DNA of 64,000 nt, taken from positions 36,506 to 100,505 of the forward strand of contig JAFGNJ010000027.1 in assembly GCA_016927065.1 (NCBI GenBank), in the 5' to 3' direction. The position numbers and the translations under genes were made by a program. The notes below the pieces were generated by a model. That model saw only the letters and a list, made by a program, of their open reading frames with translations. It did no database searches and was not told the origin of the DNA. Shown in pieces: positions 7,063 through 34,597 of this stretch. The stretch comes from Deltaproteobacteria bacterium (lineage in GTDB: Bacteria; Desulfobacterota; B13-G15; RBG-16-54-18). How positions within the stretch are numbered: position 1 is the first letter of the stretch; every line of letters begins with the position of its first letter.

Positions 7063-8493
7063 TCAGAGTTCCTCCACGGTGATCAGATTGGTGGTCCCCG
7101 GCAAATCGACCGGGGTCCCTGCCGTAACCACCACCCGCTGACCCTTAGTCACCCATTCCTGCTGGAGGGCGGCGGTGATCCCCTTGCCCACGATCTCATC
7201 GACGTTGGTGAATTCGGGCACCAGGATGGGGTGCACACCCCAGGAGAGGATGAGTTGCCTGACAGTGGTGGGTTGGGGACTAAAGGCGAGGATGGGATAG
7301 CGGGGTCGATATCGGGAGACCAAACGGGCTGTCCTGCCTGTACGAGTGGGGGTAATAATCGCAGCCACTCCCAGGTCCTCGGCCAACTGGCAGGCGGCAT
7401 GGCTCATAGAATCGGCGATCTCCCCCTTCTGATACGGGTCGGTGGGGAGGAAGGCTGCATGGGGGAAACTTCGCTCCGTCGCCTCGGCGATCATCACCAT
7501 GAACCGCACCGCCTCGACAGGATATCTCCCCATGGCGGTCTCTTCCGATAGCATGATGGCATCGGTGCCGTCGAAGATGGCGTTGGCCACATCCGATGCC
7601 TCAGCTCTGGTGGGCCGCGGAGTATCCACCATTGACCGCAGCATCTGGGTGGCGGTGATAACGGGTTTCCCAAGGCTATTGGCCCGCTTGATCAGGTCTT
7701 TTTGCACCAGAGGGACCTGCTCCAGAGGAATCTCAACACCCAGATCACCTCTGGCCACCATGATGCCGTCGGCCTCGTTCATGATCTCTTCAATGTGTTG
7801 TAAGGCCTCGTGTCGTTCTATTTTTGCGATGATGGGAATATCGGCATGATGAGAATTCAAGACCTCCCTGGCATCTTGAATATCCTCACCCCCCCTGACG
7901 TAGGAAAGTGCGACGAAGTCTACCTCCGCCTGTACACCGAACAGGAGATCGTCCTTATCTTTGTCCGTGAGGACCTTTGTCCGCAATTCTCCACTGGGGA
8001 TATTGATGCCTTTATGGGAACTGAGGTCTCCTCCCACCACCACCTGACACGTAATCTCAGGGGGCTGAATCGCAACTACCGTGACCTCGAGAGTTCCATC
8101 CGCCAGCAGGATTGAGTTTCCCTCGCTGACGTCGTTTGTCAGACCAGGGTAGGTGACCGATAGCTTCTGTGCATTGCCCATGATTTGTTCTGTAGTCAAG
8201 GTGACGGTTGTGCCCGTTTCCAGATGTACGGTTCCTCCCTCGATCTCCCCCACTCGTACCTTTCCCCCACCGAGGTCTTGGAGGATGGCCACCGGTCTCC
8301 CAGCCTTTTCGCTTAGTCGCTTCAACAGAGTGATTTTTTCGCCATGGTCCCGACGATCTCCATGGGAGAAGTTGAGACGAGCCACATCCATGCCTTGTCT
8401 GATCATCTCCTCCATGATGACGGGATTACTGCTGGCTGGCCCGATGGTACAAACTATTTTTGTCTTTCTTATTTTCTTGCTTGGTTCCTTCAC
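7063..8493 (-). CDS. pyk: pyruvate kinase
   Basis: KIVCTIGPAS N-terminus, MVARGDLGVEIP motif, full-length 476 aa; GTG start. Confidence 0.95.
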   Translation of the reverse strand: MKEPSKKIRKTKIVCTIGPASSNPVIMEEMIRQGMDVARLNFSHGDRRDHGEKITLLKRLSEKAGRPVAILQDLGGGKVRVGEIEGGTVHLETGTTVTLTTEQIMGNAQKLSVTYPGLTNDVSEGNSILLADGTLEVTVVAIQPPEITCQVVVGGDLSSHKGINIPSGELRTKVLTDKDKDDLLFGVQAEVDFVALSYVRGGEDIQDAREVLNSHHADIPIIAKIERHEALQHIEEIMNEADGIMVARGDLGVEIPLEQVPLVQKDLIKRANSLGKPVITATQMLRSMVDTPRPTRAEASDVANAIFDGTDAIMLSEETAMGRYPVEAVRFMVMIAEATERSFPHAAFLPTDPYQKGEIADSMSHAACQLAEDLGVAAIITPTRTGRTARLVSRYRPRYPILAFSPQPTTVRQLILSWGVHPILVPEFTNVDEIVGKGITAALQQEWVTKGQRVVVTAGTPVDLPGTTNLITVEEL

Positions 8494-14003: not shown

Positions 14004-14071
14004 AAAAAAGATTCAACATATTTTTTTTGAGTCGTAACATACAGGATAAGTTAAAAGGGAGGTGTAGCAGC

Positions 14072-24454: not shown

Positions 24455-24457
24455 AGA

Positions 24458-24493
24458 GGGGCCAGGCAGAGAGGTTACCCCCTGCCTGGCCCC
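24458..24493. terminator. GC-rich hairpin (12-bp stem GGGGCCAGGCAG/CTGCCTGGCCCC) between convergent genes
   Basis: Perfect inverted repeat starting 4 nt after the apgM stop; weak T-tract. Confidence 0.45.
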
Positions 24494-24524
24494 TGTGGTT
24501 CTACTCCGTATGTTTGGGTAGCTC

Positions 24525-24878
24525 CTATTTGGGTGGTTCAATTTTCTTATTACACCCCACTTCACAGCCATCAAAATAGTATTCCCACCCATCGGGACAT
24601 GACATAGTTGGCTGGTTTGGTAAACAACGGAATACCTCTTGGCCAGTACCAGTCTTTTTATGCCATCCTTGAGGACACTTCATAATTTGCAACGTATCTG
24701 ATGTTGTTGGTTGCGGCGGGGTCTGTTGTGTTTGGGGTGTTGATGGACCGGAACGGGACCATGCCATAAAACCCAGCCCCACGATAAATACCATTACCAT
24801 CACCACTAAAACTGTCCATCTGAAATTTTTCATAAATCCCTCCTTCTTGTTTTTTTGTTTATTATGCTTTATTTTCAA
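24525..24878 (-). CDS. small secreted Cys-containing protein
   Basis: Signal-like hydrophobic segment WTVLVVMVMVFIVGLGFMAW, Pro/Thr/Gln linker, six Cys in C-terminal 50 aa. Confidence 0.5.
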   Translation of the reverse strand: MKIKHNKQKNKKEGFMKNFRWTVLVVMVMVFIVGLGFMAWSRSGPSTPQTQQTPPQPTTSDTLQIMKCPQGWHKKTGTGQEVFRCLPNQPTMSCPDGWEYYFDGCEVGCNKKIEPPK

Positions 24879-24940
24879 TCGACCAGGTCAGAGAGGGTAC
24901 CCCCCCCCCTACCTGGTGGCCGCTGAGATTCTACTACTGC

Positions 24941-25813
24941 CTACTCCTGTTCAATCTTGAATGTTCCGCTGCAGCACGAACCAGAGAGGTCATGATAGGT
25001 GCCGTCAGTGGCGTACCACTTGCCAAGGGCATTTTTGCACAACGTGGCCTTGATCTCATGTAAACAGTCAGCATCTTCGGTGCCTTTCATTCCCTTCAGT
25101 CTCCCCACAAGCGTACAACAGTTGCCTGGCCCAGGGATCACCGTTGCTTTGAGCTTGGCGGTTATCGTACCGGTTGCGGGGTCTAGTACATCTCCCAGCA
25201 CTCCGGAACCACAATTGGTCTGCTGCAGAATCAAGGTGAACTTTGCTGACTCTGGGCCCACAGGGCATGCCGGATCGTCTACACTGATTCCCTTATATTT
25301 GCCGGCGATACAGCACGGACCGGTTTGAGCCTCGCAGGTGAGTTTCAGCTCTAGGTTGTTGTTGCCTTCATTCTCCTCCGTTACCACTTTCCACAGGTCC
25401 ACCACCGCCTTGATGCCTTGGATCCCTGATACCTTCAGCTTGCTTACGTAGGTGGCTGTGCCTCCCGGTGTCTTTAGATGTTTGGCAGGGTCGAAATTCC
25501 AAATAGGGCCTCCGCCCCAGCCGGTGCCGTTTTTGTAGAGATAGACCCCGGCGCTTTTGGGAGTGTGCACCGTCCAGACCTCATCGGGCACGATGCCGGG
25601 GCCGAGGTTCTTAATTACAACTGCCACGCGGCAGTCCTTGGTGAGATAGATATTATCGATGGTGAGGTCGGGCAGTCTACTCACAGGCGGTTTCTTCGTT
25701 TCAGAGATAGCTGCATCCTCTTTTTTTCCAGGCTGCTGGGCGAAGATAGTTCCTGTTGCCAAGATTGCAGCCGACCAAACAACCAATCCCATCAATAATG
25801 CTGATCTCTTCAT
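24941..25813 (-). CDS. secreted protein with N-terminal CARDB-like domain and Cys-rich C-terminal region
   Basis: Signal peptide; PDLTIDNIYLTKDCRVAVVIKNLGPG resembles CARDB; CC/CxxC pairs. Confidence 0.6.
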   Translation of the reverse strand: MKRSALLMGLVVWSAAILATGTIFAQQPGKKEDAAISETKKPPVSRLPDLTIDNIYLTKDCRVAVVIKNLGPGIVPDEVWTVHTPKSAGVYLYKNGTGWGGGPIWNFDPAKHLKTPGGTATYVSKLKVSGIQGIKAVVDLWKVVTEENEGNNNLELKLTCEAQTGPCCIAGKYKGISVDDPACPVGPESAKFTLILQQTNCGSGVLGDVLDPATGTITAKLKATVIPGPGNCCTLVGRLKGMKGTEDADCLHEIKATLCKNALGKWYATDGTYHDLSGSCCSGTFKIEQE

Positions 25814-25862
25814 GATCTTCCCTCCTTAATTACTTTTTTACCGCTGAGTGTCCATTCCCCTC

Positions 25863-25873
25863 AAAAAGGTTCA
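25863..25873 (-). promoter_or_regulatory. candidate ECF-type -35 element TGAACCTTTTT
   Basis: 11-mer on minus strand 50 nt upstream of ATG at 25813; same motif upstream of four other units in this locus. Confidence 0.35.
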
Positions 25874-25913
25874 TTTCCGTTAGTCTCGTCAGTATATGGT
25901 TTCCCCTTGATGC

Positions 25914-26735
25914 TTAAGGCCGAGCAGAACCAGGTAAACTGGCTGGGCGCGGGGTAACATGAACTGATATGTAATCAGATCTGACGTTTCCCGCCCCATC
26001 CAAAACTTGGATGTCAAACCCCGTATCACGTTCTATATCCCTAATAGTAATACTAAAAGGAGGTGTTGTATCAGTAACAGATCCGTACCAACCGCCCATC
26101 CAGACCGCACTGATCCCTGAAAAATCATCGCTGACGTCGAACTCAAAGGTAATATCAACGCTTCCACCGTCCTTATAAATCGTTTCTCCATCGGCGGGCC
26201 GAATGCTGTGAATCGTGGGACGTTCCATGTCACACCTCAGCCTGAGATCCCTGGTGGCTGCCTGCCCCAATCTATCCACGACTTTTGCCTGGAGGGTATA
26301 GGTTCCAGATCTTGCAGGCCGGTGAGGGGAGAGATCGAGTTTAAGGTCCCTGCCGCTCCGACTTGAGACTATAGGCCCTCCGAACGTTTCGTGATAGACT
26401 TGATGCCCTCTGAATAGAATCTCAAAACTACTTAATCCCTGTCTGGCAAATATATCGAAGTCAATGCTGACTCGATAGTCGTCACTCGGCGCACCACAAA
26501 AAAGCAGTATATTATAGTCATCGGTGAGGCTCTCGCAGGAAAATTCGTTGATTTTTGGTCCTGGGAGTCGTACGGTGGTATGTGGTAACGGCTCCAATTT
26601 TTCTTTTGGTTTTTCAACCTTCTCTGCATCGAGTTCCTTTTGTTTCGTGCTTTGTGCTGCCCACAGCGGCATACTTAAGGCCAATGACACAGCTAAAGCA
26701 ACAACCACTCCCCATGTAATAGTTTTGTCTTTCAT
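25914..26735 (-). CDS. secreted protein with Ig-like beta-sandwich region
   Basis: Signal peptide MKDKTITWGVVVALAVSLALSMPLWAA; beta-rich C-terminus. Confidence 0.55.
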   Translation of the reverse strand: MKDKTITWGVVVALAVSLALSMPLWAAQSTKQKELDAEKVEKPKEKLEPLPHTTVRLPGPKINEFSCESLTDDYNILLFCGAPSDDYRVSIDFDIFARQGLSSFEILFRGHQVYHETFGGPIVSSRSGRDLKLDLSPHRPARSGTYTLQAKVVDRLGQAATRDLRLRCDMERPTIHSIRPADGETIYKDGGSVDITFEFDVSDDFSGISAVWMGGWYGSVTDTTPPFSITIRDIERDTGFDIQVLDGAGNVRSDYISVHVTPRPASLPGSARP

Positions 26736-26785
26736 CGCAGTTCCCTCTCCCGTTTTCTCTCTATCTTTTTGTTCCTCATCCCTGC

Positions 26786-26796
26786 AAAAAGGTTCA
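26786..26796 (-). promoter_or_regulatory. candidate ECF-type -35 element TGAACCTTTTT
   Basis: 11-mer on minus strand about 50 nt upstream of ATG at 26735, just downstream of the S8 protease stop. Confidence 0.35.
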
Positions 26797-26814
26797 AAAA
26801 TATTTTCTAGTAAC

Positions 26815-28380
26815 TCAATCTAATAACTTCTTCAGATCAACCAGGCCCGAGCCGAACTGCTTGTCTTTGCCCGGCGGACCGTAGTCTTTTGCTGACTTTT
26901 CTAAAAGAGACCGCACCTCTTCTGGCCTCAGATTAGGGTGCTTCTGTAGCAGGAGGGCCACGGCCCCGCTCGCATAGGCCGCTGCCATGGAGGTGCCGGT
27001 ATAAAAGTCATATTTTTCCCCCGGTTGGGTGGTCATGATGTCCACCCCAGGAGCACAGAGAGTGATAAAGTCCCCTTTAATGCCCTCGGCATATGGTTTG
27101 CTCTTGATGTCCACGGCGGCTACGGCGATCACTTCAGGCAGGGCTGCAGGGTAGGGGGGATAAGTGGTGAGACTTTTATCACCGGCCGCCGCTACGATAA
27201 TAATACCTCGTGCGAAGGCCTCTTTGACGAGGTCGATTATTAAGGGATCTTTAGGCCCTCCCAGGCTGAGGTTTATCACTTGGACAGTTTGTATGATGGC
27301 GTAATCAATACCCTGGGAGAGCCAAAAAGAGGTTGTTGTGGCGGCTATCTTCCCTTCGGCGATGGGCTGACACGTCTTGATGGCCACGATCTTCGCCCCT
27401 GGGGCCAGGCCGCAGATACCGAGACCATTATTGCATTGTGCTGCGATGATGCCGGCTACAGCGGTGCCGTGAAGATCGTGCTGGAATGAGTTGCTGGCCG
27501 TGACGTCCTTTTTATGTGCAATTCGTCCTTTGAGATCTTGATGCAGGTAATCCACACCGGTATCTATTACTGCTACTGTGACGCCTCTTCCATCGATTCC
27601 GGATGGCAATTGATCGGCATTGAGCGACTTGAAGGCGTATTGCAGATCTGCGAGGGGATCAACCTTTGTCCCGGCGGTCCGGTAGAGATAGTTGGGTTGA
27701 GGAGACATCTCGTAGGGTTCACGGGAGAGAATCTCCATGACCTCCTCGACGGGGCGCCCGTCAGGTATCCGCAGGCGGACGAGGGATTTTCCTAAAGAGC
27801 CCAGTTCAACGACTTCTGCCACTTCCAGGCGATAGGACCGACTTATTCGTTCCAAGATAGGTCGTACGGACCGTTTGTCGCCTTGAACCGTTATCAGAAC
27901 CTCCCTTGTGATTATCGATTGCAAGGGGAAGCCCTCTGTGATGTTGATGACCTGCACCCGAGGGCCGGTTTTGATGATAAATGGGGGGCATCCCGGCACT
28001 TCGATGGCAGTACAAAAGGTGTATGTTCCTGGGGAGGCTTGATAGGTGGGCGTAATGCTGACCCGTGTTATGAAGCTCTGTTGAGGATGGACGGTTTGGA
28101 TATGAGAAGCCTTGATTTCAAACCACTTTTTGTGACTCGCTACAGTGGGGATAATGGATACTTCGACGCGTTGATAACGAGACCCGGTAAGATTTATCAG
28201 TTTGATTTCAAAGGTGGCCTCTTGTTCCCTCGTGACGGCCTTTGAGGGAGGGATAATTTCTGTCAGGAACCAATCTGGGCCTTTCATCATAGCGGGTTTC
28301 TGGCCAGACTGAGAGACGGTAGGGCAAAGGCTGCTGTAGCAGAGAAATACGACGAGAGCTAATCGAAGATATACGGACAT
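26815..28380 (-). CDS. subtilisin-like serine protease (peptidase S8)
   Basis: Catalytic triad motifs VAVIDTGVD, HGTAVAGIIAA, GTSMAAAYASGA; start chosen at ATG 28380, 1 nt after anti-sigma stop. Confidence 0.9.
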   Translation of the reverse strand: MSVYLRLALVVFLCYSSLCPTVSQSGQKPAMMKGPDWFLTEIIPPSKAVTREQEATFEIKLINLTGSRYQRVEVSIIPTVASHKKWFEIKASHIQTVHPQQSFITRVSITPTYQASPGTYTFCTAIEVPGCPPFIIKTGPRVQVINITEGFPLQSIITREVLITVQGDKRSVRPILERISRSYRLEVAEVVELGSLGKSLVRLRIPDGRPVEEVMEILSREPYEMSPQPNYLYRTAGTKVDPLADLQYAFKSLNADQLPSGIDGRGVTVAVIDTGVDYLHQDLKGRIAHKKDVTASNSFQHDLHGTAVAGIIAAQCNNGLGICGLAPGAKIVAIKTCQPIAEGKIAATTTSFWLSQGIDYAIIQTVQVINLSLGGPKDPLIIDLVKEAFARGIIIVAAAGDKSLTTYPPYPAALPEVIAVAAVDIKSKPYAEGIKGDFITLCAPGVDIMTTQPGEKYDFYTGTSMAAAYASGAVALLLQKHPNLRPEEVRSLLEKSAKDYGPPGKDKQFGSGLVDLKKLLD

Positions 28381-28381
28381 C

Positions 28382-29026
28382 TCACTCTCCCTGCACCTCC
28401 ACAAACCTGATGACATCCCTTTTCTGCCGTAGTGAGGAGATAATCCCCTGAAGTTCCTCGGCACTCATATCAGATTGCAACTCCACCGTATAGATCCCCA
28501 TAGGAGAAGGGCCTCGAACAATGGTCCCGTTTATTTCCAAGATAACCTCTCGAGCCGTCTTTTCCTGGACTCCGTCCTGAAAGAGTATGGATACTTTTGG
28601 TCCTGTGCCTTCGACTGCTTGCGGTCCGGAGAGGGTACGATAGAATCGCTCCCCAGCACCCCAGGGGTTAAGGGTAAAGAGGCCTATGAGCCCCGCAATC
28701 ACGATGAGCTGTGTGACGATGAGCAGGGCAGGTTGCGGTCTGGGGATAAGCGATGCAACCCTCTGCCAGATCGTTCTTTCTCGTTTTTCGATTTCCGCCA
28801 TGAGATGGGGGAAGATTTGGGGGACAGGGATCTCTTCGGCAATGGCTTGATAGCCTTTCTGTTCTTTCTTAATCGCTGCAAGCTCCTCTTGACAGATCGA
28901 ACAGTGTCGGAGGTGTTTTTTGACCGCTGCTTTCTCCTCTTTCTCCAGGGTGCCATTGAGATACCAGGGAAGAAGCAGATCGACCCCTTCAGGACAGAAG
29001 CCTGCTTTGACTTTTTTTTGTTTCAT
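28382..29026 (-). CDS. anti-sigma factor, zinc-finger (zf-HC2) type with TM helix and periplasmic domain
   Basis: HLRHCSICQEEL HxxxCxxC motif near N-terminus; 4-nt overlap with sigma factor gene. Confidence 0.7.
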   Translation of the reverse strand: MKQKKVKAGFCPEGVDLLLPWYLNGTLEKEEKAAVKKHLRHCSICQEELAAIKKEQKGYQAIAEEIPVPQIFPHLMAEIEKRERTIWQRVASLIPRPQPALLIVTQLIVIAGLIGLFTLNPWGAGERFYRTLSGPQAVEGTGPKVSILFQDGVQEKTAREVILEINGTIVRGPSPMGIYTVELQSDMSAEELQGIISSLRQKRDVIRFVEVQGE

Positions 29027-29625
29027 GCCTCACCTCCTATGCCCATTTGCTGTAAGATTCCTCCCAATCGTTTGCGGGCGTAAAACATCCTTGTCTTAAC
29101 TGTATTGGAGGGGCATCCCATGATCTCGGCTATCTCCTTTATGGAGAGCCCCTGATAATAGGTCATGTCGAGTACCTCCCGGTGTTCCCGGCTTAAGCTG
29201 TTGATGGCCATGCGCATCTTGTCCCTCAACTCGGAGCTATAGGTTGCATCGTCTTGTGTGATCTTATTGTCTGCCGTTATCTCCACGGTCTCTAAATCCT
29301 TGTGCGTAGGTGGCCTCTTTTTGATTTCCTTGCGGACCTTGTTGACGGCGATCCCGAACATCCAGGTAGAGGGTTTTGACTCGCCCCTGAACCGTTTTGC
29401 CCCTCTCCAAATCTCCAGCATGACTTCATTGGCCACCTCCTTGGCCCCCTCTCCTTCGCCGAGTAGGCGATAGGAGAAAAGGTATAACCGCTTATAGTAT
29501 CTATCGTAGATCTCACGGAAGGCCTGGTGATTGCCCGCTGCCACCAACTCCAACAACCTTCCATCTTCCAACGATCGTTTATGTGTTCTCAATAGATAAG
29601 TCCTCGCACAGAGAAAAAGGTTCAA
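29023..29625 (-). CDS. RNA polymerase sigma factor, ECF (sigma-70 region 2 and region 4)
   Basis: Regions 2/4 motifs (YRLL..., YYQGLSIKEIAEIMGCPSNTVKTRMFYARKRL); listed TTG start coincides with promoter motif, so true start is probably a downstream non-ATG codon. Confidence 0.8.
   Translation of the reverse strand: MNLFLCARTYLLRTHKRSLEDGRLLELVAAGNHQAFREIYDRYYKRLYLFSYRLLGEGEGAKEVANEVMLEIWRGAKRFRGESKPSTWMFGIAVNKVRKEIKKRPPTHKDLETVEITADNKITQDDATYSSELRDKMRMAINSLSREHREVLDMTYYQGLSIKEIAEIMGCPSNTVKTRMFYARKRLGGILQQMGIGGEA
29614..29624 (-). promoter_or_regulatory. candidate autoregulatory ECF-type -35 element TGAACCTTTTT
   Basis: 11-mer at the extreme 5' end of the sigma ORF. Confidence 0.35.
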
Positions 29626-29722
29626 AGGGGGTTTTGCCCCTCTTGTGAAATACTAAGCCCCAATCTCCATGAAATGAAGATTGAGGCGTGGGATGACACC
29701 TTTCCTCCTTCAGGATCAAGTG

Positions 29723-30520
29723 TTACGGCCTCATCCGGGCCGCCGTCCCGAAATAACGGTCCTTTTCCTGAAGCACTATCTTGAGCTGATCTGTTGGGTC
29801 GAAGTGGATTTCTGCATAACCTTCCTCCGGTATGACGAGGCCGGCATAGGTGAGTCGCCAGTGCATCTCGGCCATGATGACCCCCTCCAGCTCATAGACC
29901 TGGTCGACGGTGAAGCGCAGGACGATGTTGTTAAGGGTTTTAAAGTCATTATCAATGGTTCTTCGCAGTCCCTGCCAACCCTTAGGATATTGCTGATAGT
30001 CTTTTGATATTAATTCCATATACTGTTCTAGACGTCTGGACATGTAGGCCTTGGCCAGCTTATCCGCTTGCTGCTGGATCAACTCCCACAGCGTGATGGG
30101 AAGATAGGTGAGCCGTTTTATCCCGAAAGCTTTGGGGGCGGAGATAAGACCTGCAGAATTGGTAACCCTGAAGATTAGTTGGTAGCTCTTGTTGGGAAGG
30201 GGGACAAACCTGAACTGCCAACTCTCATGCCCTGTTGCCTTTTCCCATGTTTTTCCGCCGTCAAGGGAGACCTCCACTTTTTTCACCTGAGATCCGGCTC
30301 CATCGGCTGTTCCCACGATCAGGATCTCACCGTTGCTGGTAAGATCCTCCTTAATGATCGTCACGTCGGTCGCGTTCGTGAGATCTTTTTTGCCGATGGC
30401 GGCATTGGTGATGCTCGGTTTATCCAGTTTTTGAGGAGCCATTCCCCAGGCCAACGATACGAGCGACAGCAAGACAATACTGGTTACAACACACCTATAA
30501 CATCCCTTCCATAAAGACAT
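29723..30520 (-). CDS. secreted protein, paralog A (Ig-like N-domain plus NTF2-like-looking C-domain)
   Basis: Signal peptide; extended sequence similarity to the adjacent gene (e.g. FGIKRLTYLPITL, HWRLTYAGL). Confidence 0.6.
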   Translation of the reverse strand: MSLWKGCYRCVVTSIVLLSLVSLAWGMAPQKLDKPSITNAAIGKKDLTNATDVTIIKEDLTSNGEILIVGTADGAGSQVKKVEVSLDGGKTWEKATGHESWQFRFVPLPNKSYQLIFRVTNSAGLISAPKAFGIKRLTYLPITLWELIQQQADKLAKAYMSRRLEQYMELISKDYQQYPKGWQGLRRTIDNDFKTLNNIVLRFTVDQVYELEGVIMAEMHWRLTYAGLVIPEEGYAEIHFDPTDQLKIVLQEKDRYFGTAARMRP

Positions 30521-30573
30521 CGATTTCTCCCCGATGAGAATTTCTTTATCTTTTATTCGTTACTTATTTTATG

Positions 30574-30584
30574 AAAAAAGTTCA
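30574..30584 (-). promoter_or_regulatory. candidate ECF-type -35 element TGAACTTTTTT (variant)
   Basis: Variant 11-mer on minus strand 54 nt upstream of ATG at 30520. Confidence 0.3.
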
Positions 30585-30886
30585 TGAGGCCTTCGCCTGC
30601 TGTTGAGTTATCCGCTTATCTGGAATCGGAGGCCTTATTGTTCTATTTTTTTATAGTAAATTAAGCAGGATAAAAGACCTTGCCTTGGATCTTTGAGCTA
30701 AAATCTTCCTTTTCACGCTAGCTTTATACAGCCAATATTACACGGCAGCCTTAATGCGTCTCGTCAGCGATAACCCAAAAAGTGTTTGAACTACTAACTG
30801 ATTGTTTCCGTGCCCCTTACTGTACGCTGAACACCTTGATATCCGCGATGTAGTGACGTTATCAACACTTCTAGTTCACACACAGC

Positions 30887-31966
30887 TCAGGTGAATGTAA
30901 AGGTAGTAACCCGCCGTACATTCCTTCGCCAATCAGCAGTAATCTCATCTGTATAGGTAATGGTAATAGTGTCTCCTAGTGTAAGGGGGAAAAAACGTGA
31001 CCCCACAAACTTTCCCGAGCGGCGCGGGGTCTCTGTTAGCGTTATATTGCCGTTAAATATAACAACACCGCCTATTACCGTTCTAACTCTTACGGTAATT
31101 ATGTTGGCGCCGACCTTGTCCAGATCGGTAACGATGAACTCGTATACCGACGCAGCTAAAGGGACTATCTGTATTGTCCCATTATATCCGATGGGTGCGG
31201 ATCCAAAGTAGAGATCATTTTTCTGGACCAGAATCGCCAGTTGATCATTGCGATCGAAATGGATCTCTACGTAGCCCTCCTTGGGCTCGAGGAGCCCCGC
31301 GTAGGTGAGCCGCCAATGGATATCGGCCATGATCATCTCTTCCAATTCAAAGATTTGATTCACGCTAAAGCTCAGAACGATGTTATTAAGGGACTTGAAG
31401 TCATTTTCTATAGCCTTGCGCAGGTTTTGCCACCCTCGGGGATAGTTCTGATATCCTCTCGAGATAAAACCCATATACCTATCTCTATCTTTGGCCATAT
31501 ACACCTTGGCCAGTTCATCGAGCCGCTCCTCGATTAATTCCGACAGCGTTATGGGAAGATAGGTGAGCCGTTTTATGCCGAATGTCTTTGGATTGGAAAC
31601 GGCACCATCGGCGTTGGTGACCCGGAGGGTGAGATGATAGGTATAGTTGGGGAGAGGAAGGAACTCATGCTGCCACTTCTCGCGTCCCGTTGCTTCCTTC
31701 CAGGTCTGTCCGCCGTTGAGAGAGACTTCAACCTTTTCGACCGGGGGGCCTCCTCCTGCGGACTGTCCCCCAATGAGGATCTTGCGTTCGCGGGTGAGAT
31801 CATCCTTTATAACCGTTACTTCAGATGTTGTTATAAGGTTCTGTTTGCCGATCGTGGCCGAGGTGATATGTGGTTCATCGGCGGCAGCCACCAATGGCAC
31901 TGTCAACACAGAGAGTACAAGGATAATGTTCAGACACCCATAAAACAGTCTTTTCTGTACCCCCAT
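30887..31966 (-). CDS. secreted protein, paralog B, with extra C-terminal beta-rich extension
   Basis: Start set at Met of MGVQKRLF (signal peptide) with Shine-Dalgarno GGAAAGGGAGG; longest ORF to 32035 would include the promoter motif. Confidence 0.6.
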   Translation of the reverse strand: MGVQKRLFYGCLNIILVLSVLTVPLVAAADEPHITSATIGKQNLITTSEVTVIKDDLTRERKILIGGQSAGGGPPVEKVEVSLNGGQTWKEATGREKWQHEFLPLPNYTYHLTLRVTNADGAVSNPKTFGIKRLTYLPITLSELIEERLDELAKVYMAKDRDRYMGFISRGYQNYPRGWQNLRKAIENDFKSLNNIVLSFSVNQIFELEEMIMADIHWRLTYAGLLEPKEGYVEIHFDRNDQLAILVQKNDLYFGSAPIGYNGTIQIVPLAASVYEFIVTDLDKVGANIITVRVRTVIGGVVIFNGNITLTETPRRSGKFVGSRFFPLTLGDTITITYTDEITADWRRNVRRVTTFTFT

Positions 31967-32023
31967 ATTTCCTCCCTTTCCGTAATACGAGCTCGATCTT
32001 TTATGTAAGTGCTTATTTCCCCA

Positions 32024-32034
32024 ATAAAGGTTCA
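32024..32034 (-). promoter_or_regulatory. candidate ECF-type -35 element TGAACCTTTAT
   Basis: 11-mer on minus strand 58-68 nt upstream of ATG at 31966; overlaps stop of the upstream barrel gene. Confidence 0.35.
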
Positions 32035-33669
32035 TTAAAATGTTAGCTTCAATCCACAGTAATAGACACCTTCTATGTAGTTCTGGTCATAGGCATCCTC
32101 ATCAAAGTGCATATAACTTGCACTGAGGGTCAAGTTAGCAGTAAATAGATTTCGTTCCCACAACACCTGATCAAAGACGGCACTGCACGAGCGACTGATA
32201 TTATCTACGAACCCTAAGGAAGGGTCAGGATCATTATCGTAGTACTCGACGGCTACAGTGAGGCTTAACGATGATTTAGTACGTTCATAGCTGAGAGCGA
32301 GTCCCGCATTACCACTGTAGACCCGATCGATCAATCTTGAAAGGATATATTGTCGATATTCATAGGTCCCTCCGAAGTTCCATGCCCAGTCCAGGGCCAA
32401 CCAGGGATAGTTGATACCGAGAGATACAGTAGGTGTGTGGCTGAAGTACTCACAAGTGTCATCGGTCCTGTTCCAATTCCTGCTATAGGTATAGCCGATG
32501 GAGTAATTCCAGTGCGTGAAGCTTTGGTACACTGTACCGTAGACCATGAGATCATCCTGGTCCGTCGTGCGGGGTTCATCCTTGGTGTAGTATTTTGAAT
32601 GATCAATCATGAGATCAACGGCAAGGCTATTCCACATATCTTCTCTTTTGTAAAAAGGATAGATGGTAGAGCTGAAAGAGGTCAGGTGAGTATGGGTGCG
32701 GTGTTCCGCCAGTGAATGTTTATCTATTTTGTCGTAAGAATACTCATAAAAGAGCATTGTACTCACCATTTCCCACGGGGCGTACTCTATTTCTCCCTTT
32801 ACCCGCTGTACATCCGCTGAGGCATATCCCATGGTCGAATAGAACCAGGGTTCCACGCGCTCAAACTCGGCCCGTATCGTGAGATTGTCGCGCGGACTGA
32901 TATCCCCCCTCGCTAAGAAGGCGTTTCCGTATTGGTCTCGGAGTGTTTTATCCCGCTCATCGTAATTATAGATGCTACGGGCATACTCAGCATCGAAATG
33001 GAGTCGGTCGCTCCACAGGCTCAGGTGAAGATCACCTCCAAACACCTGGTTGAACTGATCTCCGAGCGAGGAATCGGCCCGCAGCGAATCCCGTTCAACA
33101 TCTGAATAGATAAAGGTACCTCCTAGGGTAAGGTGTTCTTTGTAAAAGAGTTCTATCCTCCCGCCGGTGGTGTTTTGGATGTAATCATCCAAGTCTTGAT
33201 CTCGGTTTCTTCCATAGAGGGCCGATACTTTTATCCAATCGTTATATTTGTAGAACCCCTTCGCTCCCAGCAAGGAGGTGCTGAGGGTATACGGGGTATA
33301 ATCCTCGGCGTAATCCCCGCCCCAGAGTTCATAGAATTCATCGTAGAGACGAAAGTAACCCTCCACGAACATCCACTCTCGCTCATCGATTTGGTGTAAT
33401 GAATCGTTACTGTTCCTAAAGTGAGTATAGCCCTGGAACTTTATCTTATCAGTAAATTCGTGGTTGAGATCGAGGATTAGGTTCTCCACATAGAACCAGC
33501 CTTGCTCCAAGGATGATTTTTCCTCGTTACCCCTGACATAGTTATAGTAGCCCTCTGACGAGAGATAAATATCAAAGGAGCCTTTTTCCCAATTGATGGC
33601 GGAGACGGTGATGGGAAGCAGAAAAATAGTAATCGCTATACATAAGGAGAGCAATCTCATGTTATCCAT
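32035..33669 (-). CDS. putative outer-membrane beta-barrel protein
   Basis: Signal peptide MDNMRLLSLCIAITIFLLPITVSA, Tyr/Asp-rich alternating pattern, C-terminal ...GLKLTF ending in aromatic residue. Confidence 0.6.
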   Translation of the reverse strand: MDNMRLLSLCIAITIFLLPITVSAINWEKGSFDIYLSSEGYYNYVRGNEEKSSLEQGWFYVENLILDLNHEFTDKIKFQGYTHFRNSNDSLHQIDEREWMFVEGYFRLYDEFYELWGGDYAEDYTPYTLSTSLLGAKGFYKYNDWIKVSALYGRNRDQDLDDYIQNTTGGRIELFYKEHLTLGGTFIYSDVERDSLRADSSLGDQFNQVFGGDLHLSLWSDRLHFDAEYARSIYNYDERDKTLRDQYGNAFLARGDISPRDNLTIRAEFERVEPWFYSTMGYASADVQRVKGEIEYAPWEMVSTMLFYEYSYDKIDKHSLAEHRTHTHLTSFSSTIYPFYKREDMWNSLAVDLMIDHSKYYTKDEPRTTDQDDLMVYGTVYQSFTHWNYSIGYTYSRNWNRTDDTCEYFSHTPTVSLGINYPWLALDWAWNFGGTYEYRQYILSRLIDRVYSGNAGLALSYERTKSSLSLTVAVEYYDNDPDPSLGFVDNISRSCSAVFDQVLWERNLFTANLTLSASYMHFDEDAYDQNYIEGVYYCGLKLTF

Positions 33670-34003
33670 TGCCTCCTTCTACATTTAACTGCTTCTCAGC
33701 ACCTGTAAAATCATGGTCGCAAAAAAGCCTCCAGAGGGCATACTTAAACCTTGAAGACTCAATACAGCGTGCTTTTTCGCAAACTTTCCTTCTCATCCTC
33801 CCCCTTCTGAAAGATAGCGACAATATTGTTGTATAATATCAGTCCTTTTCAGATTGTACTGTAGCACACTAGTTAAAAGTTTAGCCCTTGTCAAGAATAA
33901 ATATGTTCATTCGGAAGATGGGTATAGACAAAGTTATTAGCAACTTAGGTAACATAAAAGCCGTGGTTAATGTGTCAGGGACAGAAGGAGTGGTGTTATC
34001 CAG

Positions 34004-34597
34004 TTATTGTTGCTGGAGGAGCTTTATTTCCTTTAAGGCAAAATCATCGTGGTTGCCGCACTTGGGACCTTTTGCTGTGACGATGAGCTTGTTGATCCCA
34101 GGGCGCAATACGTGTGAGGGGAGGGGGACCTGGATGGTTCTGAATGTTCTATCCTCTTCTTGATAAACGTAGTTATTGAGGTTATCAATATAATTGCCAT
34201 TGATATATAATTTATTTGTAAAGAAACCGTTGCGGTAGTCTGTACTCTCATTGTCGTTGCGTACGGCAACCATTCCTGCTACCTGCAAGGAGAGGGTGTT
34301 TTTACTTCCCACTGATCCTAGAGTAAATTCCTTCTGATACTCCAGACCGACCCCACTATTATCATCACCTATGTAGCTCATCTCGGGGTCAATAATGATA
34401 GTTTTTGTCATTTCCTCTACGTTGGATATCTCCCTATTAATGTACTGTTCACTCTGGGGGGTAGCTTGGGAAATGTTGGATATTAAGCGAAAAAATAATC
34501 GGGGGGTAACGGGGAAAAGGCCTAATATTAAAAGAATAATTATACAATAACTGAAGCCCTTTTTCATCAATGCCTCTTTTTTCGGAGACGAACCCAA
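34004..34597 (-). CDS. secreted hypothetical protein
   Basis: Signal peptide; likely start at internal Met MKKGFSYCIIILLILG (about 34567). Confidence 0.5.
   Translation of the reverse strand: MGSSPKKEALMKKGFSYCIIILLILGLFPVTPRLFFRLISNISQATPQSEQYINREISNVEEMTKTIIIDPEMSYIGDDNSGVGLEYQKEFTLGSVGSKNTLSLQVAGMVAVRNDNESTDYRNGFFTNKLYINGNYIDNLNNYVYQEEDRTFRTIQVPLPSHVLRPGINKLIVTAKGPKCGNHDDFALKEIKLLQQQ

Follow-up and report, generated by a model that had tools for sequence, protein, structure and literature searches.

Sigma factors of the extracytoplasmic function (ECF) type make up a major class of signalling systems in bacteria, and most of their groups have no known input. The closest described systems for the locus reported here are the E. 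coli sigma-E/RseA/DegS/RseP, P. aeruginosa AlgU/MucA/AlgW and B. subtilis sigma-W/RsiW/PrsW systems. The locus lies in a 64 kb stretch of Deltaproteobacteria bacterium DNA (the window), on the minus strand from 33669 to 24525. In it, the genes for an ECF sigma factor, a zf-HC2 anti-sigma factor and a secreted S8 subtilase follow one another directly, and genes for further secreted proteins lie on either side. Five promoter-like sites in this locus are likely to be read by the encoded sigma factor, and the anti-sigma factor's periplasmic domain appears to resemble, remotely, a subtilase prodomain. Autoregulated ECF regulons are nothing unusual in themselves; what seems new here is that a subtilase is conserved alongside an anti-sigma factor with a prodomain-like sensor.

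Like the E. coli and P. aeruginosa systems, the locus combines an RpoE-like sigma factor, a GAAC-type −35 element, a predicted autoregulated operon and a single-pass anti-sigma factor, for which stepwise proteolysis would be expected. It differs from them in that the sigma factor scores below the RpoE cut-off, the anti-sigma factor is of the zf-HC2 type rather than RseA or MucA, no RseB is present, the protease is an S8 subtilase without PDZ domains rather than DegS, and the targets are lineage-specific secreted proteins rather than envelope-repair genes. The B. subtilis system is similar in other respects: SigW is among the top solved matches of the window sigma factor, and RsiW is a zinc-binding single-pass anti-sigma factor with a dedicated site-1 protease. 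PrsW, however, is a membrane protease that is not encoded with its sigma factor, and RsiW lacks a prodomain-like domain. In the SigI/RsgI system, signalling involves proteolysis, and the anti-sigma factor is equipped with a modular sensor domain outside the cytoplasm (PMC10328401). The window anti-sigma factor likewise has a modular extracytoplasmic sensor domain, whereas RsgI autocleaves and carries carbohydrate-binding modules, and neither type of domain is present here. According to a review from 2020, the site-1 proteases identified in bacteria are DegS, DegP, SipS/SipT and Prc, with no subtilase among them (PMC7593790).

The gene order on the minus strand is putative outer-membrane barrel, parA, parB, ECF sigma factor, anti-sigma factor, S8 subtilase, p273, p290 and a small Cys-rich protein, flanked by a heptosyltransferase gene and a phosphoglycerate mutase gene. 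An ATGA overlap of 4 nt (29026–29023) joins the sigma stop codon to the anti-sigma start codon, and 1 nt separates the anti-sigma stop codon (28382) from the S8 ATG (28380), in agreement with the coupled junctions described in an earlier note on this DNA. The identities given there to the three proteins hold as well. The sigma factor (∼182 residues, 29023–29571) matches the Pfam families Sigma70_r2, Sigma70_r4_2 and Sigma70_ECF and scores 100.2 bits against TIGR02937 (cut-off 42.9), placing it among the ECF (group 4) factors. Its closest solved relatives are AlgU, SigW and sigma-E, the promoters of which carry a GAAC −35 element. Against the RpoE equivalog model TIGR02939 it reaches 82.3 bits where the cut-off is 236; judged by its sequence, the factor is RpoE-like and not an RpoE orthologue. 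The anti-sigma factor (214 residues, 28382–29026) scores 32.1 bits against zf-HC2 (PF13490, cut-off 22.2), with His38, Cys42 and Cys45 (H-x3-C-x2-C) invariant and one predicted transmembrane helix at residues 99–119, as in anti-sigma factors of class I. The subtilase (521 residues, 26815–28380) comprises a signal peptide, an Ig-like N-terminal domain, a prodomain at residues ∼150–240 and a catalytic domain that scores 167 bits against Peptidase_S8 (PF00082), with Asp273, His304 and Ser464 as the catalytic triad.

The motif TGAACYTTT has five matches in the 64 kb, compared with 1.3 expected, and all five lie on the minus strand, at 32034, 30584, 29624, 26796 and 25873. An 11-mer search allowing one mismatch returned the same five sites and two off-target sites, at 14005 on the minus strand and at 29388 on the plus strand. 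The earlier note had placed the motif upstream of five start codons, and this is where it lies: the T of TGAAC is 68 nt from the parA start (ATG 31966), 64 nt from parB (ATG 30520), 53 nt from the sigma gene (probable TTG 29571), 61 nt from p273 (ATG 26735) and 60 nt from p290 (ATG 25813). A search downstream of the motif for a conserved −10 element, which had been proposed as a check, found an AC-N-N-A box at every site, with the form AC(T/G/A)(T/A/C)A and starting 23–24 nt after the T of TGAAC. Together the boxes make a bipartite ECF-type consensus, with a −35 element TGAACCTTT and, 17–18 nt after TGAACC, a −10 element (G/C)ACT(T/C)A, or as one string TGAACCTTT-N14-(G/C)ACT(T/C)A.

The sites were scored using a two-block matrix trained on 30 sites from ten related loci, with the window excluded and a threshold of 14 bits. 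Across both strands of the window the matrix returned exactly the five gene-linked sites, at 18–34 bits, whereas shuffled windows gave 0.57 matches at the threshold. Scatter of the motif over the rest of the window, which by the earlier note would have told against its own proposal, is therefore not seen. The putative promoter of the sigma/anti-sigma/S8 operon (29596–29624; −35 TGAACCTTT, −10 ACTTA at 29601–29597) has the top score in the window, at 34 bits. The p290 promoter (25844–25873; TGAACCTTT, ACTCA) scores 27.8 bits, the parA promoter (32005–32034; TGAACCTTT at 32034–32026, ACTTA at 32010–32006) 25.3 bits and the p273 promoter (26767–26796; TGAACCTTT, ACAAA) 24.6 bits, and the weakest of the five is that of parB (30555–30584; TGAACTTTT, ACGAA), at 18.3 bits. 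The parA promoter overlaps the stop codon of the barrel gene in the arrangement TAATGAACC. Housekeeping promoters do not account for the pattern, as sigma-70-type promoters are not enriched in the locus (10 compared with 12.9 expected); simple terminators number 8, compared with 10.9 expected. Two terminator-like hairpins between parB and the sigma promoter (29624–29687, minus strand) are consistent with separate transcription units.

The longest open reading frame (ORF) of the sigma gene begins at TTG 29625 and would take in the −35 element, so the true start must be downstream. In most related loci (L003, L006, L009 around 9438; labels of this form denote loci compared with that of the window), the sigma ATG follows the T of the −35 element by only 38 nt, which implies a leaderless or near-leaderless mRNA. 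In the window (29560–29625), the position of that ATG is occupied by ACA, so the sigma factor probably starts at TTG 29571, without an obvious ribosome-binding site.

Ten close loci were fetched using the anti-sigma protein (52–76% identity), and all ten keep the order barrel, parA, (parB), sigma, anti-sigma, S8. The motif occupies orthologous positions in these loci: upstream of the sigma gene (10/10), on the barrel stop codon (the TAATGAACC arrangement recurs in L002, L003, L005–L007, L009 and L010), upstream of parB (L006, L007, L009 and L010) and directly after the S8 stop codon (every close locus). Further downstream, the loci have differing numbers of genes for secreted proteins, and the motif lies ahead of each of these as well, including the p290 orthologues of L002, L007 and L010, which have the same type of promoter. 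The matrix has 47 hits in the ten loci and that of the window taken together; 46 are on the gene strand, and the remaining one lies ahead of a CARDB gene in the opposite orientation. Further afield, TGAACC with a −10-like box ∼17 nt downstream is found upstream of the sigma gene in many distant loci of Gamma-, Beta- and Alphaproteobacteria, NC10 and Nitrospirae. TGAACC is constant and the −10 box differs by lineage, from ACTTA and ACTCA in the window to CCACCTA and CGACATA in an NC10 locus, and GGAATTA, GCACTTA and CGACTTA in others. Extra copies of the motif in the distant loci precede genes for CARDB proteins, a 1011-residue HExxH protein, an RTX-repeat protein and others.

Two further arrangements were seen among the related loci. 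In gammaproteobacterial loci with divergent promoter pairs (L016, L042, L049, L061 and L083 ∼7150–7400), a second, opposite-facing copy of the motif lies just upstream of the sigma promoter and is predicted to drive the RTX-repeat or other secreted-protein gene that it precedes. Promoters of the CACTCATAGATAAAA class have leaders of ∼135 nt (L002 13285–13420 and 14503–14638; L007 15537–15673 and 19340–19470; L010 10256–10387), which contain a strong Shine-Dalgarno sequence and an upstream ORF of 16–30 codons with a conserved CAGTTTxGxTTGGTTTGG, ending at or overlapping the main start codon. The p290 leader in the window is only 60 nt long and has no such upstream ORF.

The two-box pattern also bears on whether the motif is a promoter at all. 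It could instead serve a DNA-binding regulator as its operator, or mark, as a scar, where gene cassettes were duplicated or exchanged, and the 0–8 different genes between S8 and the phosphoglycerate mutase gene, each with its own copy of the motif, do look cassette-like. Yet the two boxes keep a fixed register of 23–24 nt, have no dyad symmetry, are strictly co-oriented with the genes that follow and lie 32–151 nt upstream of start codons across the loci; conservation is limited to the boxes, with flanks and spacers that vary, and unrelated genes carry the motif. We consider an operator or scar most improbable, and a cassette-junction origin of the repeats was rejected on the two-box register and the strand bias.

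If the sites are promoters, the locus-encoded sigma factor is their probable reader. We consider it likely that the RpoE-like factor reads all five, switching on its own operon together with four units for secreted proteins: one promoter would drive sigma/anti-sigma/S8, giving positive autoregulation, and the others would drive parA, parB, p273 and p290. The co-encoded anti-sigma factor and the bipartite autoregulatory promoter with an AAC-containing −35 element, both expected of an ECF factor, are found here in silico. The motif could also be read by a different RpoE-type sigma factor encoded elsewhere in the genome, acting as a general envelope-stress factor. It resembles the GGAACTT-N16-TCNAA class of sigma-E/AlgU promoters, and the search covered only 64 kb of the genome. 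There is, however, no site elsewhere in the window, every close locus and most of the distant loci have the motif upstream of the local sigma gene, and the −10 box varies by lineage together with the local sigma factor, all of which make a distant reader very unlikely. Local autoregulation also accords with general ECF behaviour, because ECF factors usually autoregulate and are encoded with their regulators and targets (PMC7826278). The earlier note's proposal of an autoregulated ECF regulon for secreted proteins is thus supported in silico by the −10 box, the matrix, the orthologous sites, the distant TGAACC copies and the RpoE-like sigma factor.

The periplasmic part of the anti-sigma factor ends in a domain of ∼70 residues (residues 144–212, 28391–28597, minus strand), modelled using AlphaFold (AF2) with a pLDDT of ∼84 and displaying a beta-alpha-beta-beta-alpha-beta fold. 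The top Foldseek matches in the Protein Data Bank (PDB) include POIA1 (1ITP), the subtilisin propeptides 1SCJ_B, 1SPB_P and 3CNQ_P (TM 0.61–0.69), EpiP and fervidolysin. Superposition of the model on 1ITP, 1SCJ_B, 1SPB_P and 3CNQ_P gave TM scores of 0.55–0.69 and root mean square deviations of 2.5–3.6 Å, consistent with a shared fold. In a set of 32 diverse family members, matches to PF22148 (Fervidolysin_NPro-like) were counted at E ≤ 1; 24 of the 32 match, the best at 3.5e-6, and no other family recurs. The S8 pro-region itself weakly matches PF22148 in 5/9 members, and alignment of the domain profile with the S8 pro-region profile using hhalign spans 70 columns in register (E 2e-5). Direct BLASTP of the anti-sigma C-terminal domain against S8 found nothing, so the relation is visible at the profile level only. 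The anti-sigma periplasmic domain thus appears, on its model and profiles, to resemble a subtilase prodomain, and the similarity is remote.

A profile search of 1.84 billion representative proteins returned 1666 clusters at E ≤ 1e-3. In all of the best 150 of these 1666, the domain is at the extreme C-terminus of a protein of ∼190–260 residues or of a shorter fragment, which points to a domain family dedicated to anti-sigma factors; distant members have the motif V-x-F-A-E-P at their end. Compared with subtilase prodomains and I9 proteins (1SCJ/1SPB, POIA1 1ITP and fervidolysin PF22148), the window domain has the same predicted fold but is fused to the C-terminus of a membrane anti-sigma factor, lacks the active-site linker and belongs to a distinct family. 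Between the membrane helix and this domain, a linker modelled at low confidence contains, at residues 129–135 (28622–28642), the motif (Y/F)xTLS(G)P, which is conserved across phyla and is a candidate recognition or cleavage site.

The association of the subtilase with this anti-sigma factor extends well beyond the close loci. A scan of one genome per species identified 191 anti-sigma relatives, from which 80 loci were kept, and 89 loci were compared overall. The 80 loci come from Delta-, Gamma-, Beta- and Alphaproteobacteria, Nitrospirae, NC10 and Acidobacteria, and include cultured members (several Dyella species, Povalibacter uvarum, Methyloglobulus morosus, Methylotetracoccus oryzae, Pelagibius marinus, Sphingomonas mali and Crenothrix). 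The sigma gene is immediately upstream of the anti-sigma gene in 87/89 loci, and S8 adjoins the anti-sigma gene in 72/89, with several of the remainder cut by contig ends. Given the extra motif copies before varied secreted-protein genes, the conserved core is the sigma factor, anti-sigma factor and S8, and the targets are variable secreted proteins. In one nitrospiral locus without S8 (L055, 8677–10962), the gene directly after the anti-sigma gene encodes a caspase-family secreted protein (Peptidase_C14, 103 bits), which suggests that a protease partner of another family can fill the S8 slot.

These features allow a mechanism to be proposed. In the resting state, the sigma factor would be held at the inner membrane by the single-pass zf-HC2 anti-sigma factor, the periplasmic domain of which would be a mimic or homologue of the prodomain that S8 itself carries. 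In the version that we favour, mature S8 may recognise this domain and cut or degrade it, as subtilases do their own prodomains, and so act as a site-1 protease dedicated to this step. Release of the sigma factor would follow through a site-2 protease and cytoplasmic proteases. That S8 makes the first cut of a regulated-proteolysis cascade in this way is a possibility we put forward tentatively, on the strength of the domain model and gene neighbourhood.

Several observations weigh against cleavage by S8. The Foldseek matches have E-values no better than 8e-3 to 7e-2, and similar scores are reached by other ferredoxin-like folds, namely ribosomal protein S6 and ACT domains. The window copy of the domain reaches 16.4 bits against PF22148, below the cut-off of 21 (E 0.012), the hhalign probability is 77%, and a search of PDB sequences with the domain profile gave nothing relevant, only a spurious match to superoxide reductase. 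The domain also ends 2–5 residues after its last strand, leaving it without the tail with which true prodomains occupy the active site. About 10 loci with enough sequence have no adjacent S8, and an S8 co-transcribed with its own activator would make an unchecked positive loop unless a signal gates that loop.

The weak similarity shared with other ferredoxin-like folds, the sub-threshold window copy, the members without an adjacent S8 and the missing tail would all fit a simpler arrangement. Here, the promoters and the autoregulation would be real, S8 would be no more than an output of the regulon that might process or degrade the secreted CARDB or Ig-like proteins or external substrates, and the domain would sense something other than S8, its likeness to a prodomain having arisen by convergence. 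The synteny and the profiles pull in the other direction, as S8 stays adjacent across phyla in the large majority of loci while other neighbours vary, one prodomain family and none other recurs among the domains, and the domain profile is in register with the pro-region of the cognate S8. On balance, we regard S8 as a mere output as rather unlikely.

The need for a gate on the loop bears on a further possibility, in which the relation is reversed. The domain may bind S8 as an inhibitor or chaperone, with bound S8 protecting the anti-sigma factor from degradation, much as RseB protects RseA; export or titration of S8 would then switch the sigma factor on, giving negative feedback on the S8 supply and avoiding the runaway loop. 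Tight inhibition is a property of subtilase prodomains in isolation and of I9 proteins, among them POIA1, which is also the top Foldseek match. Outer-membrane barrels recur beside the triad of sigma, anti-sigma and S8 genes (the predicted 544-residue barrel here, and Gcw_chp proteins in 22 distant loci) and could relate to export. We consider protection by S8 unlikely. Site-1 cleavage by S8, the mechanism proposed above, would have a eukaryotic analogue: S1P of the SREBP/ATF6 pathway is described as a subtilisin-type enzyme (PMC12067269). If the hypothesis holds, a subtilase would in both cases make the first luminal or periplasmic cut, license intramembrane cleavage and free a transcription factor, although the parallel is by analogy only.

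The four predicted target units encode proteins with signal peptides. The parA (JXA50_10865; 359 residues, 30887–31966) and parB (JXA50_10860; 265 residues, 29723–30520) proteins are 56% identical over 259 residues, as expected from the earlier note's description of tandem paralogous secreted proteins upstream. Both have Ig-like (E-set in parB) and NTF2-like domains, and parA has ∼100 extra C-terminal residues. The AF2 model of parB (pLDDT 83) matched sulfite-oxidase dimerisation and Y_Y_Y Ig domains and NTF2-like folds using Foldseek; these are generic Ig-like and NTF2-like neighbours only, and the structure search gave no functional lead. All 90 members of the parA/parB family are hypothetical proteins and belong to the clade of the window, and among the 89 loci the barrel, parA and parB occur in the close clade only.

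Downstream of S8, the order given in the earlier note, CARDB-like then Ig-like, needs correcting. The Ig-like protein p273 (25914–26735), with weak matches to Big_7 and Big_13, comes first, followed by the CARDB-like p290 (24941–25813) and then the small Cys-rich protein (102 residues, 24525–24833). The N-terminal domain of p290 scores 16.2 bits against CARDB, below the cut-off of 22.7 (E 0.012), and its C-terminal half is Cys-rich; its orthologues in seven loci are 54–68% identical, and a motif-preceded target in the distant locus L013 passes the CARDB cut-off, at 25.3 bits. The small Cys-rich protein has no relatives in the other loci by tblastn and no ECF motif of its own. The earlier note's description of the targets, an envelope or extracellular module of unknown function, is accurate.

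The interval from S8 to the phosphoglycerate mutase gene (24455–26815 in the window; also L002, L003, L007, L008 and L009) is a variable cargo region. Its content ranges from no called forward-strand gene, in L008, where the motif copy after S8 is still present, to at least eight secreted-protein genes, and includes CARDB, PASTA-domain, Lnt and small Cys-rich types, most with their own copy of the ECF promoter. Two hairpins on the minus strand lie in this region, one 3′ of p290 (24875–24926; −29 kcal/mol, z −2.4) and a strong one 3′ of the small Cys-rich gene that closes the locus (24457–24494; −45.6 kcal/mol, z −7.0). They have the core AGGGGGTAACCTCTCTG in common, within a shared (A/G)GGGGGTA(A/C)CCTCTCTG, and no further copies of the pair were found in the window. 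The p290 hairpin contains a G10 run that might be prone to slippage or might have arisen in assembly. The window gave no matches in Rfam and tRNA scans.

Upstream, the putative barrel protein (544 residues, 32035–33669) has a signal peptide and a C-terminal Phe, in the terminal sequence ...KLTF. The window copy has no Pfam or PDB sequence match, and weak SlpA_C matches were found in orthologues only (L001, L003, L005 and L007). The barrel gene has no ECF motif of its own, as no matrix match lies upstream of it; the parA promoter overlaps its stop codon. The barrel gene, a 197-residue ORF upstream of it and the small Cys-rich gene were accordingly left out of the regulon or treated as uncertain members, as none has a matrix match. 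The 197-residue ORF (34004–34597, minus strand) has a signal or membrane-anchor sequence, no Pfam match and no ECF motif, and is conserved in L003, L008 and L011 (61–67% identity) and degraded in L006 and L009. An ORF of 44–53 codons containing Cys and His (33662–33823, minus strand), with a strong Shine-Dalgarno sequence and no ECF motif, abuts the barrel start. In 22 distant gammaproteobacterial loci (for example L074, 6497–7228), a small outer-membrane beta-barrel of the Gcw_chp family (PF09694) adjoins the triad, a parallel to the 544-residue barrel.

The main text of the ECF classification 2.0 paper makes no mention of peptidase, subtilase or TGAAC. A literature search, which did not cover the ECF Hub group descriptions, found no report that ties an ECF or anti-sigma factor to a subtilase or prodomain, or that describes a TGAACC ECF promoter; the neighbourhood may already be catalogued in those descriptions. 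This could be the first bacterial signalling family to place an ECF sigma factor under the control of a dedicated S8 protease, by way of an anti-sigma factor whose periplasmic sensor is a decoy copy of the protease's prodomain, a claim we hold as tentatively as the cleavage on which it depends.

The locus belongs to a large uncharacterised family in which sigma factor, anti-sigma factor and subtilase travel together, and in which the sensor resembles the protease's own prodomain. It offers a clean, conserved promoter consensus and a compact regulon that can be tested directly by reporter fusions, and the cultured members Dyella spp., Sphingomonas mali, Povalibacter uvarum, Methyloglobulus morosus and Pelagibius marinus are open to such testing. 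If the protease does not act on the anti-sigma domain, what is described here is an autoregulated ECF regulon of the usual kind. If it does, it would be a new type of site-1 protease, with a new 'decoy prodomain' sensing principle in bacterial regulated proteolysis, and bacteria would have in this system their own counterpart to the cascade from S1P (subtilase) to S2P in eukaryotes. The decoy-prodomain family would then be widespread, with its 1666 clusters and its members in Proteobacteria, Nitrospirae, NC10 and Acidobacteria, and would drive variable CARDB, Ig-like and other surface proteins.

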